This document shows positions 11,327-63,344 of a stretch of 64,000 nt of DNA, piece by piece. Where the stretch lies: the sequence record ON528739, one strand, 5' to 3'. Within the stretch, counting starts at the first letter, position 1; each line of letters begins with the position of its first letter. The position numbers and the translations under genes were made by a program. The DNA is from Shigella phage ESh29. The notes under the pieces are model-generated. The model saw nothing but the letters and a program-made list of their open reading frames with translations. It did not search any database and had not been told where the DNA came from.

Positions 11327-11357
11327 TTTGTGTTCCTCATGTTATGTCAGTAAGACT

Positions 11358-11387
11358 ACTATAACACAACACGAGGGACTTGTAAAC
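11358..11387 (-). promoter_or_regulatory. Early-promoter-like cassette (GTTTAC -35, 18-nt spacer, TATAGT -10), minus strand
   Basis: Minus-strand GTTTAC at 11382-11387 and TATAGT at 11358-11363; about 50 nt near-identical to the cassette at 27131-27184. Confidence 0.55.
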
Positions 11388-19886: not shown

Positions 19887-19954
19887 TTTTATTCTCCAAG
19901 ATGTTTAATTGCGGTACAGGTATATAATATCATATCCTGTACCAAAGTAAACAA

Positions 19955-27126: not shown

Positions 27127-27154
27127 AAAGTCCTCATGTTATGTCAGTAAGACT

Positions 27155-27184
27155 ACTATAACACAACATGAGGGACTTGTAAAC
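27155..27184 (-). promoter_or_regulatory. Early-promoter-like cassette (GTTTAC, 18-nt spacer, TATAGT), minus strand, upstream of alc
   Basis: About 50 nt near-identical to the cassette at 11337-11387, including the 5' leader and GAGGA RBS. Confidence 0.55.
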
Positions 27185-27187
27185 AGC

Positions 27188-28775
<1,588 letters not shown>

Positions 28776-36826: not shown

Positions 36827-36869
36827 ATTATTTTCCTCTTTAATCATCAGCAGTATTGCCGATAGTTGT

Positions 36870-36899
36870 ATAGTACCACAGTCCTTGTGGTATGTAAAC
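36870..36899 (-). promoter_or_regulatory. Early-promoter cassette with ACCACA...TGTGGT dyad in the spacer, minus strand
   Basis: Minus-strand GTTTAC at 36894-36899, TACTAT at 36870-36875, A/T-rich upstream region; about 50 nt identical to the copy at 56997-57047. Confidence 0.55.
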
Positions 36900-36920
36900 C
36901 GTTTTGTGAAAAAATTTTTG

Positions 36921-36949
36921 AAATAAAAAAGGGGACCTCTAGGGTCCCC
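36921..36949 (-). terminator. Rho-independent terminator after gene 32 (minus strand)
   Basis: GGGGACC...GGTCCCC hairpin followed by TTTTTTATTT on the minus strand. Confidence 0.7.
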
Positions 36950-53176: not shown

Positions 53177-53217
53177 TTTCTAATCTCCGTAATTCTGTAT
53201 CAGTAGTTGATAGTTGT

Positions 53218-53247
53218 ATAGTACCACAGTATGCTTTGGTTGTAAAC
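53218..53247 (-). promoter_or_regulatory. Early-promoter-like element (GTTTAC, 18-nt spacer, TACTAT) for motA
   Basis: Minus-strand GTTTAC at 53242-53247 and TACTAT at 53218-53223; shares the TGTGGTACTATACAACTATCAAC block with other copies. Confidence 0.55.
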
Positions 53248-53265
53248 CGGTTTGTGAAAAAATTA

Positions 53266-53294
53266 AAATAAAAAGGGAGAGCCGAGGCTCTCCC
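53266..53294 (-). terminator. Rho-independent terminator (minus strand) after gene 52 and the small ORF
   Basis: GGGAGAGCC...GGCTCTCCC hairpin followed by TTTTTATTTT on the minus strand. Confidence 0.7.
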
Positions 53295-55324: not shown

Positions 55325-55782
55325 TAATATGCCTGCAAAACAAATTTAAAGTTATCAGCCAACATACGGTTCATTTCTTCAAGTGTTTGATACTCAGAAT
55401 GATGATTACGAGTAAACGCTAAAGCTAACTGACCTTTTCCAAATCCCGTCGTCAGAGGTTTCATCTTAGAAGCAGGCAGATAAAACACTGTGTATGGAAC
55501 ATTATTATTTGCAATAGTATGAGCAAGCTGAGACCGGCGTTGACGAATATGACTTAGAACTGCGCTGAATCCTTGCTTAGAACGCTGATTACCTACATAA
55601 AATCGTGCAGACACACATGGATTACTAAATGGACGACCATCTAATTTACTTACTAAAAAGTAAAATCCAGGTTTAGATAAAATATCTTTATGCGGAGTTC
55701 CTAAAAACCATTCACCACCCTTGATTGTACCAATGACAGTAGCGCCTGCGTTGTTCAGATCAGTAACAGTCATATATTTCAT
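55324..55782 (-). CDS. ndd: Nucleoid disruption protein Ndd, 152 aa
   Basis: Start set at MKYMTVTD inside track ORF 55324-55830; sequence recognised as Ndd; synteny. Confidence 0.8.
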
Positions 55783-56492: not shown

Positions 56493-56520
56493 TTTCTGTT
56501 CCTCCGTAGTTGATAGTTGT

Positions 56521-56550
56521 ATAGTACCACGGAAGAACAGTCTTGTAAAC
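56521..56550 (-). promoter_or_regulatory. Early-promoter-like element (GTTTAC, 18-nt spacer, TACTAT), minus strand
   Basis: Minus-strand GTTTAC at 56545-56550 and TACTAT at 56521-56526, followed by the conserved ACAACTATCAACTAC leader. Confidence 0.5.
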
Positions 56551-56766
56551 AACTTTTTAAAAATATTCGTAATAAATGTGAATACCAACTACTACCGCTG
56601 AAACCTGTGCAACCCACCACGCACAAGCAATAAGTACAGAATTCAAAATTTTCATAATAACCTCATCACAAAAGTAAATGTTAAACAAATTACTGGAATA
56701 CTAATTAACCAAACAAAACACCACCATAGTGAACTCATAGTTCAATCTCAACGATTTTCATTTTAC

Positions 56767-56973: not shown

Positions 56974-57007
56974 TTTATTCTCCAAATCCGTATCAGTTGA
57001 TAGTTGT

Positions 57008-57037
57008 ATAGTACCACAGTCCTTGTGGTATGTAAAC
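57008..57037 (-). promoter_or_regulatory. Early-promoter cassette with ACCACA...TGTGGT dyad, minus strand
   Basis: About 50 nt identical to the cassette at 36859-36909. Confidence 0.55.
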
Positions 57038-57053
57038 CGTTTTGTGAAAATTT

Positions 57054-57611
57054 TTAAATGGAAAGATACCATCCGTTGTAGTTGCTTTTTCTTACAACCT
57101 TACGAAGGTCTTCTCTATCACCGATGAACTTCGGAGTGTACTGGATGACACCTGGATGAATTTCTTTAGTGTTGAATATAATTATACAGTCAGCGACTTG
57201 ATGATTTAGAATGGGCCCTAGATTTATTCCAGAACCATATGGATACTCTCCGCCGCATCCTGTTGTTACAGAAATCCAACGTGAGTCAGTTTGATGTGTT
57301 TTGACTTCTACTCGAAGCCCGCAATATTTTGGATGTGCTAAAACATCCCATGCATATGTATACGGGTCATTAACATCCTCTTGGCCTTTGTTAACATACC
57401 CGCTTAGCCAATCTGCTACCACATACTCGGCATACACAGCGATACGACATCTTTCGATAACTTCTGCCTTATCCTGATTTGGATTTTGTTTTAAAGAGTA
57501 TCTTGCAGTATCAGCAATTTTGACCTTCATTTCACTGGTCAAATCACTGTTCGATAGGGTAAATGTCGGAATCTGAAATAGTCTCTGTAACCCCGGATTC
57601 GTTTTCTGCAT
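57054..57611 (-). CDS. denB: Endonuclease IV-like protein, 185 aa
   Basis: Size and position between rIIB and ndd match T4 denB; start uncertain because it overlaps the upstream ORF by 68 nt. Confidence 0.55.
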   Translation of the reverse strand: MQKTNPGLQRLFQIPTFTLSNSDLTSEMKVKIADTARYSLKQNPNQDKAEVIERCRIAVYAEYVVADWLSGYVNKGQEDVNDPYTYAWDVLAHPKYCGLRVEVKTHQTDSRWISVTTGCGGEYPYGSGINLGPILNHQVADCIIIFNTKEIHPGVIQYTPKFIGDREDLRKVVRKSNYNGWYLSI

Positions 57612-57873: not shown

Positions 57874-57904
57874 AATTCACCTTAAAACAAAAGGGCCGAA
57901 GCCC

Positions 57905-58099
57905 TTATTTAAATTGTTCAATTCTTTTCTCTAAACAATCTGCATAAGATTTCATTGAGATAAACTGTGAAAGCAGTAATTCTTGCTCAACTGCACTAAC
58001 CGTTAGAAACTTTGCGCTTTCTAAAAATTTACTAAGTGCATTAATTTTGAGCATTAGTTGATCGTATTCTTCTTTTACTCGTGCTTGATAACCTAACAT
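57905..58099 (-). CDS. Hypothetical protein, 64 aa
   Basis: ORF flanked by GGGCCGAAGCCC hairpins. Confidence 0.4.
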   Translation of the reverse strand: MLGYQARVKEEYDQLMLKINALSKFLESAKFLTVSAVEQELLLSQFISMKSYADCLEKRIEQFK

Positions 58100-58127
58100 A
58101 ATTTTCCTTAGTTAAGGGCCGAAGCCC

Positions 58128-59066
58128 TTATTTAAATTGTTCAGTAACGTCTTCAACTACTTCGTATTGGCAGGTACGCATTTTAGCATCGTTGTAATCA
58201 ATCGGAATTGATACTACATCACGTGGATGTACTTTAACTTTTACAACTCGGCTGGTTGAACTACCAAAGTGACGAATATAAGATTTAGAACACACATGCA
58301 GACCACGAGAACAAGTTTGTGTATCATCATCATTTACGCGAGTACGTGGCATTTTAACTACTTTACCCGGACTGTTATCAAAGGTATTTGAGTGACAGTC
58401 AAAGTAGTTGTCACGAACTACTTTCCAAGCATAGAAGTAACCATCTTCTGTAATTTCAATATCATTTGCTACCAAGAAATCAAAGAGTCGAGATACCGCT
58501 TTTTGACTTGGGTTTTCCAACAGATTTTCCAAGAACGGAAAATAAAATTCAAAGTTTTCACCTTTTTCCATCGAGTCAAGAATACGATCAACCAGACCAG
58601 ACCGTAATTCAATATTTTGATAGAACAAGCTTCCACCTTCAATTCGAACATCGCCGGAAATATATTTTTCAACAGCGCGACGAACATTAATTTTTTGTGC
58701 CGCTTCTTCCAACTTATCCGCTACAAGCAGATTAAGAATTTCCTGGAAGTTTGAATGAGTATTAGGAGTTGCGTTATAAGTTACACCATCAACAGTAATC
58801 GAAATGAATTTTTTAGATGCATTCCAAATAATGTCAGATTTAGCAACTGGAGCAATAACTGCATCGCTATTAACTTTAACTGTAATATCACCGCTAATAG
58901 TAACTTTAGAGCGTTTAGCTTCTTCAGCATTTTTCAAAACACGACGGATTGTGTCAACCGATACACCTTGCCAATCAGCCAATTCCTGTTGGGTGTAATT
59001 ACCACTTGAATACAATTTAACAATTTCAGCTTGTTCGTTTTTGGTCAGGCATTTAATATTGTACAT
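58128..59066 (-). CDS. rIIB: rIIB protein, 312 aa
   Basis: Length and position directly downstream of rIIA. Confidence 0.85.
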   Translation of the reverse strand: MYNIKCLTKNEQAEIVKLYSSGNYTQQELADWQGVSVDTIRRVLKNAEEAKRSKVTISGDITVKVNSDAVIAPVAKSDIIWNASKKFISITVDGVTYNATPNTHSNFQEILNLLVADKLEEAAQKINVRRAVEKYISGDVRIEGGSLFYQNIELRSGLVDRILDSMEKGENFEFYFPFLENLLENPSQKAVSRLFDFLVANDIEITEDGYFYAWKVVRDNYFDCHSNTFDNSPGKVVKMPRTRVNDDDTQTCSRGLHVCSKSYIRHFGSSTSRVVKVKVHPRDVVSIPIDYNDAKMRTCQYEVVEDVTEQFK

Positions 59067-61494: not shown

Positions 61495-61524
61495 ATTATA
61501 CCACATCCTTGTGGTAAAGTAAAC
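61495..61524 (-). promoter_or_regulatory. Early promoter (GTTTAC, 18-nt spacer, TGGTATAAT) with ACCACA...TGTGGT dyad
   Basis: Minus-strand GTTTAC at 61519-61524 and perfect TATAAT at 61495-61500 with an extended -10 TG; overlaps the gene 39 stop. Confidence 0.6.
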
Positions 61525-63344
61525 TACTGGCTCATCCATTCTTTACGAAGGTCAGCATTATCTCCCATGAGCATTTCAAAAAGCTCTTTCCAGTTCTCAG
61601 GAAGTTTAACAACATCATATACTGGATTTTGAATCATCTCACGATATTCAGATTTTTCCAAAGAGCCAAGTCCCTTAATATAACGGATGCTATGTTTAGG
61701 TAGAGTATCTTTGGCACTCTCATATTCAGCCACTGTATAAAACCATTCTTGTTTTTTACCGACCTGAGCGATGATTACAGGAGTTTTGACAAAGCGAATT
61801 CGTCCTTGCTCAAACAATTCTGGCCAATTACTAAAAAATCCGAGCAGAGAAGGATAAATGCTTCCTAGACCATCATGGTCAGCATCAGTCATAATAGCGA
61901 TATTATGATAATTCAAGTTTTCAGCTTTTTCACCGAGAACTAATCCAGTGATTGCGCAAATATCAAACAATTCTTTGTTTTTAAGCATATCAGCATATGA
62001 CATACCCCAACTGTTGAGAACTTTACCGCGCAATGGATAACCACCATGAAGTTCTTTATCACGAACATCAATAAGATATCCGATAGCAGAATCACCCTCA
62101 GTCAAGAAAAGAGTAGTGTCAGCATCTTTACCGCAAAGATTCGCTTTAATGTGTTTATGAACCTTAGCTTTAGAAGCCTTTTTAGCTGCTTTAGTTTCTG
62201 CTGCCTTTTCTGCCGCCAATTTACGAGCCAAAGCAGCTTCAATAATCGGCATTAGAATTGCTTCATTATTTAGAATAGCACGTGAAATCTTTTTAGCATC
62301 AAGTTGAATATGACTACGGATTTCACCAAATGGAGAAGTCAAACGCTCTTTAGTTTGAGAATCAAATCGCATGTTTTTCATATCACGGACAAACATAACG
62401 ATAGTCAAACATTCTTTAACGCGTGCTTTAGTCACATCAATTTTGAACTTACGTTTGATTTGTGGAATAAGGTCTTCACAAATATCATCCATAACACAGT
62501 CAATGTGATGGCCACCATTCTTAGTGTGAATGTTATTCACATAAGTTAATTGACGAAAACCATCCGGTGAACGACCAACCGCAATAGAGCAATTTTCTTG
62601 TTCTTGAACGATAGCATGTTCATCATATTGGCGTGCATATTTCTTAAAATTGCCCTGAACCTTTTTACCATTAAAGGTAAATTGAATATCAGGATAAACT
62701 ACTGCAAGTGTCTGGAGACGATCTAGTGTAATGTCAAGATAAACTTGGGACAGCTCATTAGTTTCAAATGACATAAAATCAGGAATGAAAGTAACACGAG
62801 TTCCTTTCCATTTTCCAGGAATAGTTTCCCATGATTTATTTTCCATGCCATTTGAACAACGAACTACAATATTATTTTGACCATCACCAGTTTCACCGAC
62901 AAACATCACAGAAAAAATGTTTGTCAAACTAGAACCAACACCATTCATACCACCGGTGACACGTTCTTTATCATCACCAAAGTTACCACCTGCTTTTGGA
63001 ATAGTCCAGGCAGCAACAGGACCAGGAATTTCTTCACCAGTAGGTGTTTTGACCATCGCTTGTGGAATACCGCGACCGTTATCTTCAACTGTTACTTGAT
63101 TGTTTTTAATAGTAACATTAATTTTATTTGCGAATTTAAACTTAGTACGAATACCTTCATCTACTGAGTTATCGATAATTTCATCAATAAGCTTAACAAG
63201 ACCAGGTACATACTGAACACTTTCCCATTTACCAAACAGAAAGCGCTCATGCATTTCATTAGCAGAAGAGCCAATATACATGCCGCTACGCTTTTTGATA
63301 TGTTCAATATCGCTCAGAATTTTAATTTCATTCTTAATCATCAC
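61524..63344 (-). CDS. 39: DNA topoisomerase II large subunit gp39 as a single 606-aa ORF (covers the T4 39 plus 60 equivalents)
   Basis: GHKL ATPase and TOPRIM-like regions in one continuous ORF. Confidence 0.9.
   Translation of the reverse strand: MMIKNEIKILSDIEHIKKRSGMYIGSSANEMHERFLFGKWESVQYVPGLVKLIDEIIDNSVDEGIRTKFKFANKINVTIKNNQVTVEDNGRGIPQAMVKTPTGEEIPGPVAAWTIPKAGGNFGDDKERVTGGMNGVGSSLTNIFSVMFVGETGDGQNNIVVRCSNGMENKSWETIPGKWKGTRVTFIPDFMSFETNELSQVYLDITLDRLQTLAVVYPDIQFTFNGKKVQGNFKKYARQYDEHAIVQEQENCSIAVGRSPDGFRQLTYVNNIHTKNGGHHIDCVMDDICEDLIPQIKRKFKIDVTKARVKECLTIVMFVRDMKNMRFDSQTKERLTSPFGEIRSHIQLDAKKISRAILNNEAILMPIIEAALARKLAAEKAAETKAAKKASKAKVHKHIKANLCGKDADTTLFLTEGDSAIGYLIDVRDKELHGGYPLRGKVLNSWGMSYADMLKNKELFDICAITGLVLGEKAENLNYHNIAIMTDADHDGLGSIYPSLLGFFSNWPELFEQGRIRFVKTPVIIAQVGKKQEWFYTVAEYESAKDTLPKHSIRYIKGLGSLEKSEYREMIQNPVYDVVKLPENWKELFEMLMGDNADLRKEWMSQ

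Follow-up and report, generated by a model that had tools for sequence, protein, structure and literature searches.

Repeated early-promoter cassettes and their surroundings

The window (the whole 64,000-nt stretch of DNA analysed here) comes from a T4-like phage of the genus Tequatrovirus, with a top DNA identity to known phages of 97.7%. A string search of the window finds exact copies of the 52-mer GATAGTTGTATAGTACCACAGTCCTTGTGGTATGTAAACCGTTTTGTGAAAA in two places, 36861-36912 and 56999-57050, and there were no matches to it in 100 dinucleotide-preserving shuffles. The repeated block described in an earlier note on this DNA is real, with two exact copies, but the positions given there (36859-36909 and 56997-57047) are shifted, the true ones being 2 nt rightward. 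An independent repeat search of the window places both copies in a four-copy family (36857-36927, 53205-53275, 56508-56578 and 56995-57065).

Read on the minus strand, both exact copies run through an A/T tract, TTTTCACAAAACG, GTTTAC, ATACCACAAGGACTGTGG, TACTAT and ACAACTATC. Copy 1 (36861..36912, minus strand) is an early-promoter cassette flanked by the gene 32 terminator on one side and the frd.3 homologue on the other; its UP-like TTTTCACAAAACG is accompanied by a -35 element GTTTAC (36899-36894), an 18-nt spacer (36893-36876), a -10 element TACTAT (36875-36870) and a predicted +1 near 36863. Directly upstream is the intrinsic terminator of gene 32 (36931..36949, minus strand), consisting of GGGGACCCTAGAGGTCCCC and then a T run, and terminator and promoter together make up one terminator-plus-early-promoter unit of the PeSL (promoter-early stem-loop) type. 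Copy 2 (56999..57050, minus strand), likewise an early-promoter cassette, starts 17 nt past the denB stop and lies upstream of a small variable ORF; here the -35 is at 57037-57032, the -10 at 57013-57008 and the predicted +1 near 57001.

Three further members of the promoter group are found on the same strand, and a scan for GTTTAC/TAnnnT confirmed all of them where the earlier note had placed them. The early promoter at 61495..61524, which has a perfect TATAAT, is upstream of rIIA.1/rIIA; its GTTTAC shares bases with the TAG that ends an unsplit gene 39 (ORF 61524..63344), and its sequence equals T4 positions about 2458-2429 with no differences. The member at 53218..53247 carries a different spacer allele (C, AACCAAAGCATACTGTGG) with no strong dyad and is preceded by a terminator at 53295-53274. 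Finally, the spacer of the member at 56521..56550 (allele E, AAGACTGTTCTTCCGTGG) pairs with the downstream Shine-Dalgarno region and not with itself.

The claim that these sites are a family of minus-strand early promoters was borne out, with GTTTAC, extended -10 and conserved start region all present. A perfect GTTTAC occurs at 36899, 57037, 61524, 53247 and 56550, and a generic sigma-70 scan recovers the same sites as TTTACA-17-TACTAT (36898, 57036, 56549 and 53246) or TTTACT-17-TATAAT (61523), with a TG before the -10 and a 17-bp spacer at all five. When the window was searched with the pattern GTTTAC, 17-19 nt, TAnnnT, 12 of the 13 minus-strand sites with perfect matches were in the 18-nt register; the 18-nt spacing, which the earlier note gave for all ten minus-strand promoters it had located, holds for those 12 but not for site 19952, which has 17. 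The figure of 18 nt is in fact the canonical 17 bp, since the T4 convention begins the -35 one base earlier (GTTTAC instead of TTTACA); for the same promoters Comeau et al. give the consensus TTTACW-N17-TAYWAT (PMC4122927). T4 early promoters belong to the UP/-35/TGn/-10 class with extra consensus positions (Hinton 2010, PMC2988021), their consensus being GTTTAC-N14-gtggTAttaT (Hinton 2010, PMC2988021; Miller et al. 2003 via GenBank notes), and the window cassettes share every element of these promoters in the same geometry.

Two parts of the earlier description have to be amended. It had given all copies an A/T-rich upstream region and a common leader. Sites 1 and 2 and the 53247 promoter are indeed preceded by an A/T-rich UP element, AAAAATTTTTTCACAAAAC, but the 61524 copy, sitting on the gene 39 stop codon, has neither such an element (the sequence before it, gene 39's 3' end, is 60% A+T) nor the ACAACTATC start region. 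Moreover, the leader at site 1 reads ACAACTATCGGC and not ...CAAC. A "TATC" near the predicted start is generic among T4 early promoters, so that the ACAACTATC "leader" is mostly discriminator plus start-site consensus and not a leader.

These cassettes also have orthologues among annotated promoters. The site orthologous to copy 1 is annotated in phage SA21RB as a T4-type early promoter, as is site 2 in the same annotation. The denB-downstream copy is orthologous to T4 site 167086, from which it differs by one base, and GenBank X75802 annotates a promoter with -35 and -10 signals at this T4 orthologue of site 2; the rIIA.1-upstream copy is orthologous, and identical, to T4 2458. From this orthology it seems probable that the window copies are active as promoters. 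The promoter-family reading is correct, and it is already known.

The spacer dyad and the T4 early-promoter consensus

The ACCACA...TGTGGT dyad that had been reported in the spacer is indeed there, but its true extent is one bp longer, giving 7+7 bp arms, TACCACA-N5-TGTGGTA. In both exact copies it reads TACCACA-AGGAC-TGTGGTA (36874..36892 in the spacer of copy 1; 57012..57030 in that of copy 2), and the 3' arm is made up of the TGn and the first two bases of the -10. The TATAAT promoter upstream of rIIA.1 has the same arms around a 4-nt loop (TACCACA-AGGA-TGTGGTA, 61499-61516). A further relative, the fifth dyad of this kind, reads TTCCACA-TGGAG-TGTGGTA with CTAT directly after it. It lies at 28343..28361, immediately after the stop codon of the gene before it (denA in T4), in a putative middle promoter that precedes rnlA and has a MotA box (TGCTT); this MotA-box-type promoter is absent from the published list of mapped middle promoters. 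The arms are separated by N5 at sites 1 and 2 and at rnlA, and by N4 at rIIA.1 and nrdC.5. The similarity of the loops (AGGA, AGGAC, TGGAG) argues for common descent of these dyads, and not for independent selection of two half-sites.

The earlier note had allowed that the dyad might simply be part of the generic T4 early-promoter consensus. We therefore assembled the T4 genome, listed 38 minus-strand early-promoter candidates and built a position matrix from the 36 that are in the 18-nt register. The TA at -12 and -11 is invariant in this matrix, and the positions before it are strongly biased (T-17 in 23/36, G-16 in 23/36, T-15 in 29/36, G-14 in 32/36 and G-13 in 18/36); a TGn is present in 29 of the 36 promoters and the exact TGTGGTA in seven. 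The matrix consequently identifies the 3' arm, TGTGGTA, as the generic T4 extended -10. The positions of the 5' arm (-29 to -23), in contrast, carry only 0.08-0.5 bit, and CCAC is found there in only 3/36 T4 early promoters, all of them with the dyad-type spacer (type B, below). The suspicion of a generic consensus is therefore justified for the 3' arm but not for the 5' arm TACCACA: one half of the dyad is generic promoter consensus, the other a spacer sequence specific to a lineage.

The pattern CCACR-N3-7-YGTGG occurs four times in the T4 genome, each time in a promoter spacer beside an upstream stop codon: upstream of rIIA.1 (2458), of nrdC.4 (50973) and of ndd.6 (167086), and in the MotA-box-type promoter upstream of rnlA (137497-137511), whose window counterpart is the dyad at 28343-28361. 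This confinement to stop-adjacent promoter spacers in T4 is a hint of selection.

Several simple identities for the dyad were considered and rejected. An intrinsic terminator would need a U tract, and none is present (the tail is CUAUACAACUAUC); the terminator scan calls the neighbouring true terminators and not the dyad. Inspection by eye also disposes of a resemblance to CRP sites, as the half-sites TGTGA/TCACA are oppositely oriented, and of a LacI/GalR-type operator around GTAAAC, for which the resemblance is too poor. By the same means, a divergent plus-strand promoter using the mirrored TGTGGTA appears unlikely, both at sites 1 and 2 (where the hexamer would be TATGTA, without the essential -7 T) and at 61499-61516 (TGG-TAAAGT with a poor -35).

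Spacer types and their exchange among cassettes

To the cassettes of T4 and of two annotated phages we added those recovered from IMG/VR and a metagenome collection with the pattern GTTTAC-N18-TACTATACAACTATC. The 82 cassettes gathered in this way, 68 of them unique, fall into about six (at least six) discrete spacer types: A, CATAAAGCTTTATG; B, the dyad type TACCACA-N5-TGTGGTA; C, AACCAAAGCATACTGTGG; D, ATCCCTGTTCTTCCATGG; E, AAGACTGTTC[CT]TC[CT]GTGG; and F, TTTCCGTTTGAGCTGTGG. The flanks of the cassettes are near-invariant, and one spacer type turns up at several loci. The same spacer types precede different downstream ORFs and the same ORF is preceded by different spacers; in alignments of the frd.3 locus across phages the spacer can be A, B, C or D while the surrounding sequence is almost identical. 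Spacers have thus been shuffled among paralogous cassettes.

Within the T4 set, intra-spacer repeats of 6 bp or more are present in 3/36 spacers against 0.31 expected (P about 0.003), although the three, one of type A and two related ones of type B, are not independent; this observation is a counterpoint to a neutral reading of the dyad.

The two loci that carry the 52-nt repeat behave differently in this respect. At the denB junction the spacer is B in 9/9 contexts seen, though the downstream ORFs vary. Given this constancy and the varied spacers at frd.3, the most economical interpretation is that the B type belongs originally to the denB junction and reached frd.3 as a copy. Such an unvarying spacer at denB (9/9) also counts against a neutral dyad. 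In T4 itself the frd.3 spacer is AAGCATAAAGCTTTATGG, whereas the window's frd.3 promoter has the denB-downstream spacer instead; the B spacer is found at frd.3 also in a metagenomic genome (L038). The T4 frd.3 spacer (type A) is a different but perfect 14-bp palindrome at the same position, and this too counts against neutrality. RNA and DNA folding give it no stable hairpin.

The denB-downstream spacer of T4, ATACCACAAGGACCGTGG, is one base off that of the window: T4 has a C at -18, which leaves the innermost pair of the stem mismatched (A.C), while the window has a T there that makes the dyad perfect. The imperfect C variant is present in 308 phage records versus 142 for the cassette with the perfect T variant, and ten of these 142 likewise contain two copies, so the arrangement in the window is not unique. 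SholemSchwarzbard, which ranks second in closeness to the window over the site 1 region, is one of the two-copy records. The exact cassette is also carried by phage PST, the subject of the PeSL paper (PMC4122927).

That such sequences recombine is not new. Repeated early-promoter cassettes are recombination substrates in T4-type phages (Arbiol et al. 2010, PMC2839356; Comeau et al. 2014, PMC4122927), PeSL-mediated exchange has been located in the ndd.4/.5 region that adjoins site 2 (Comeau 2014 Fig. 6A, PMC4122927), and T4 recombination uses homologies as short as 6-10 bp (PMC9391042).

Readings of the dyad and likeness to known systems

We consider it rather probable that the repeated blocks are paralogous T4-type early promoters with a gene-converted spacer, and that the dyad has no function of its own and is most likely not an operator. 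The blocks are paralogous copies of early promoters transcribed by the host sigma-70 RNA polymerase, their parts being a near-consensus UP, a TTTACA -35, a 17-bp spacer, a TGn, a TAYWAT -10 and a conserved start region. We infer that the 52-nt duplication arose by gene conversion, in which the spacer type downstream of denB would have been copied into the frd.3 promoter; the probable crossover sites are the stretches of ~20 bp that flank the spacer and are identical in all family members. The dyad is a trait of one spacer type, with a 3' arm (TGTGGTA) presumably kept by polymerase contacts and a 5' arm (TACCACA) that four or five promoters would share by descent. An independent function of the dyad seems improbable.

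Inverted repeats much stronger than that of the B spacer are present in many T4 early promoters, with the 5' arm in the spacer and the 3' arm just past the -10 or in the 5' UTR. At least seven contiguous pairs of this kind are formed in 14/36 T4 early promoters (the longest having 14) against an expectation of 1.0, obtained by pairing spacers with the downstream regions of other promoters, and a permutation maximum of 6 (n=2000). As sense RNA, 16 of the 38 T4 early-promoter regions fold with z < -2, in comparison with 9% of random-window controls (mean z -2.04 vs -0.36 for random T4 windows, P=2.7e-5). The window itself has a 15-bp helix at 56496-56540 (-22.8 kcal/mol, z -5.0), one of several, along with T4 62797, 65413 and 136336, that cover a Shine-Dalgarno sequence. 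Since the 5' arm is missing from transcripts initiated at such a promoter, the fold is open to read-through RNA alone. Among these embedded hairpins the B dyad could represent a weak and compressed case.

An RNA hairpin is the main rival, though in our judgement a fairly unlikely one. Read-through RNA (from denB, gene 39, nrdC.5 and denA) would fold a 7-bp hairpin past the stop codon, to act as an attenuator or 3'-end stabiliser; it would be a compressed PeSL stem-loop where a separate terminator lacks room, with promoter-initiated transcripts free of it. The excess of repeats and the better-than-random folding just described speak for this, as do the G.U pairs in several of the helices (T4 20612 and 136336; window 56550), which point to RNA. 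Every native B-type site adjoins an upstream stop codon and has no terminator, the stem is retained while the loop varies between 4 and 5 nt, one natural variant (L054) turns a C-G into a U.G pair, and terminator-prediction software flagged the dyad in SA21RB. Perhaps also relevant is that embedded hairpins are found in 2/7 promoters with an upstream terminator versus 22/31 others, which is a trend only (P=0.08). However, the dyad folds weakly as RNA (-8.4 kcal/mol, z -1.5, with 21/200 shuffles folding equally well), the B-type promoter regions do not stand out when folded (z -0.4 to -1.3), and the stem has neither a U tract after it nor a call from the terminator scan. A strong terminator already stands upstream of the promoter at site 1, and promoter function constrains the 3' arm regardless. 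Furthermore, the majority version is mismatched (A.C) and another variant (L055) breaks two pairs without compensation; the four B-type variants found in IMG/VR and metagenomes, too few for a statistical covariation test, include no compensatory change in the stem (one A.C, one U.G, one double uncompensated break), and no Rfam family matched anywhere in the window. It is because the B hairpin is weak and shows no compensatory evolution that we do not regard the hairpin as the best explanation.

The proposal of the earlier note, that a dimeric phage or host DNA-binding protein on TACCACA/TGTGGTA would occlude polymerase and so shut off a subset of early promoters, we consider very unlikely. It has some attractions: going by the sequence and general knowledge, the centre of the dyad falls near -20, so that a protein bound there, between the -35 and the -10, would block polymerase; it is present in 4-5 promoters per genome and at no other site in T4; the shut-off of early promoters is still unexplained (PMC2988021; PMC3014915); and T4 offers a precedent in the I-TevI operator within its own promoter region (PMC2988022). 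Nevertheless, the proposal was not borne out. The half-sites are separated by N5 in some copies and N4 in others, a variation that rigid dimers rarely tolerate; one half-site is the generic extended -10, which is found also in promoters that have no other half; the commonest allele is mismatched (the 308 records against 142); in two natural variants the dyad is weakened and no second change makes up for it; and at frd.3 the spacer has been freely swapped for three unrelated ones in other, viable phages. With the dyad in only about 3 of about 38 T4 early promoters, it would give no account of general shut-off, and no candidate binding protein was identified. In Mosigvirus, Dhakavirus, Gelderlandvirus and Tegunavirus, which are other T4-like genera, neither promoter nor dyad follows gene 39; DNA homology ends there at the gene 39 stop codon, and the junction has unrelated hairpins and ORFs. 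The sequence does not appear to call for a binding protein at the dyad, and an operator there has little support. Slightly less probable still is that the dyad is a small cruciform or quasi-palindrome that aids cassette recombination or is the by-product of templated (quasi-palindrome) mutation. Quasi-palindrome (templated) mutagenesis is well documented in T4 rII; folding as single-stranded DNA is somewhat more stable for the dyad than for shuffles (z -2.3 and -3.3, with -5.6 kcal/mol at z -2.3); and the spacer is the very unit exchanged between cassettes. The 14-bp palindrome of T4, having no stable hairpin, would also fit perfection by mutation and not selection for stability. But a stem of 7 bp with its 5-nt loop is not long enough to extrude efficiently as a cruciform, the long identical flanks explain the exchanges without any special site, and spacer types C, D and F shuffle equally well without a dyad. 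A broader possibility, improbable in our estimation if not quite to the degree of an operator, is that the spacer dyad, the T4 14-bp palindrome and the spacer-to-5'UTR repeats of ~40% of the promoters together constitute an unformalised regulatory layer, be it RNA gating/attenuation that distinguishes read-through from promoter-proximal transcripts or the binding of an unknown factor that aids early shut-off. The finding would matter more if a factor proved to bind the dyad or if the dyad gated read-through RNA, and the natural spacer alleles at one locus are ready-made isogenic test constructs.

As matters stand, most of what the finding offers is confirmation of what was known already, namely how T4 early promoters are built and that repeated promoter cassettes serve as recombination substrates in T4-like phages. 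With respect to operators that overlap promoters, such as that of T4 I-TevI (PMC2988022), the window dyad is similarly located where a bound protein excludes polymerase, but it differs from these and from dimeric operators in having no fixed half-site spacing, a half-site that is a core promoter element, and variants that are imperfect and uncompensated. Hairpin gating is known for the T4 late genes e, soc, 49 and I-TevI (PMC3014915; PMC2988022), and A/T-rich stem-loops have been noted at internal-protein loci (PMC2839356). As in those cases of a promoter inside a hairpin, the helices of many T4 early promoters have their 5' arm upstream of the start site; however, the published cases are of late (or middle) promoters and concern late genes, whereas those considered here are early promoters. 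The window dyad departs further from this type of gating, for both its arms are upstream of the -10/+1 boundary, it touches no ribosome-binding site and it is weak.

There is also a close likeness to the PeSL cassettes. Both these and the window units are repeated composites of a stem-loop/terminator, an A/T-rich tract, an early promoter (TTTACW-N17-TAYWAT), a Shine-Dalgarno sequence and an ATG, and both are found in hyperplastic regions beside variable small ORFs, with copies that recombine. Site 1 matches the PeSL layout, with a terminator (36949-36931), an A/T tract, a promoter and an SD/ATG, while at site 2 the sole stem-loop is the spacer dyad. The stem-loop of the PeSL papers, however, is just upstream of the promoter, whereas the inverted repeat of the window is within the spacer. 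Those papers also stress the insertion and deletion of ORFs; in the window, by contrast, a spacer of 16-18 nt has been replaced between cassettes and the gene content is unchanged. What the window adds to the known systems is a clean case of two promoters, 20 kb from each other, between which nothing but the 16-18-nt spacer has been swapped.

Inverted repeats embedded in early promoters

An inverted repeat is embedded in approximately 40% of the early promoters of T4. Its 5' arm lies within the -35/-10 spacer, and its 3' arm is found in the 5' UTR or just past the -10, frequently covering the Shine-Dalgarno sequence. Inverted repeats of at least 7 bp occur at 14 of the 36 T4 early promoters, where 1.0 would be expected, and the mean RNA fold z-score of these promoter regions is -2.04 (-0.36 for random T4 windows). 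The T4 promoters with such a spacer-to-downstream repeat include those with GTTTAC at 65799, 57990, 20612, 73939, 66498, 62797 and 65413, as well as 136336, 123093, 8218, 7215, 133331 and 129918, among others; in the window, the early promoters at 19952, 23880, 36174, 20343, 27184 and 11387 follow the same pattern. Several of these helices contain G.U pairs and there is one compensatory change between paralogues (T4 57990 vs 20612), both of which point to RNA. The helices could form only in read-through transcripts.

In the window, the early promoter at 56550 has the spacer CTGTTCTTCCGTGGT, which forms a 15-bp helix (56496-56540, minus strand) with the downstream ORF's ribosome-binding region, ACTACGGAGGAACAG. 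The helix has an MFE of -22.8 kcal/mol (z -5.0), and none of 200 shuffled sequences folded equally well. At other loci with a spacer of the 56550 type, the pairing with the downstream region is gone. A second family of repeated early promoters, with 54-nt copies that are 98% identical, occupies 11334-11387 and 27131-27184 and reads GTTTAC AAGTCCCTC[A/G]TGTTGTGT TATAGT AGTCTTACTGACATAACATGAGGA; its spacer pairs imperfectly, G.U pairs included, with the downstream Shine-Dalgarno region, and its T4 copies are those at 136336 and 123093.

Palindromes and other repeats

A perfect 14-bp palindrome, CATAAAGCTTTATG, lies in the spacer of T4's own frd.3 promoter (T4 146853-146866; 1853-1866 of L003, a T4 stretch) and in that of a second T4 promoter (55362-55375). 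Centred at about -20.5, it is unchanged in 10/10 contexts recovered, forms no stable hairpin and is not present in the window. A palindromic region lies at 19903-19952 of the window, with promoter-like hexamers on both strands (minus, GTTTAC-17-TATTAT; plus, GTTTAA-19-TATCAT) that enclose an inverted repeat of 8-11 bp, GGTACAGG...CCTGTACC. Separately, an exact 30-nt direct repeat, AAGGGCCGAAGCCCTTATTTAAATTGTTCA, occurs at 57891-57920 and 58114-58143, 223 nt apart; the copies, each containing one bidirectional terminator-like hairpin, sit on either side of a small ORF between denB and rIIB.

Promoter-like elements at gene ends

Upstream of rnlA, starting straight past the stop of the preceding gene (denA in T4), there is a MotA-box-like TGCTT, 15 nt and TACTAT (window 28343-28390, minus strand; T4 137497-137530). 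This element, which contains a B-type dyad (a TACCACA...TGTGGTA-like inverted repeat), looks like a middle promoter; among the T4 middle promoters listed as mapped in 2010, none belongs to rnlA.

The window carries gene 39, which encodes the large subunit of topoisomerase II, as one undivided ORF of 606 aa (61524-63344), whereas T4 has separate genes 39 and 60, with mobA and 60.1. The TAG stop of the window gene is overlapped by the GTTTAC of an early promoter, and this same overlap, 'TAGTTTAC', recurs at the stop of T4 nrdC.5.
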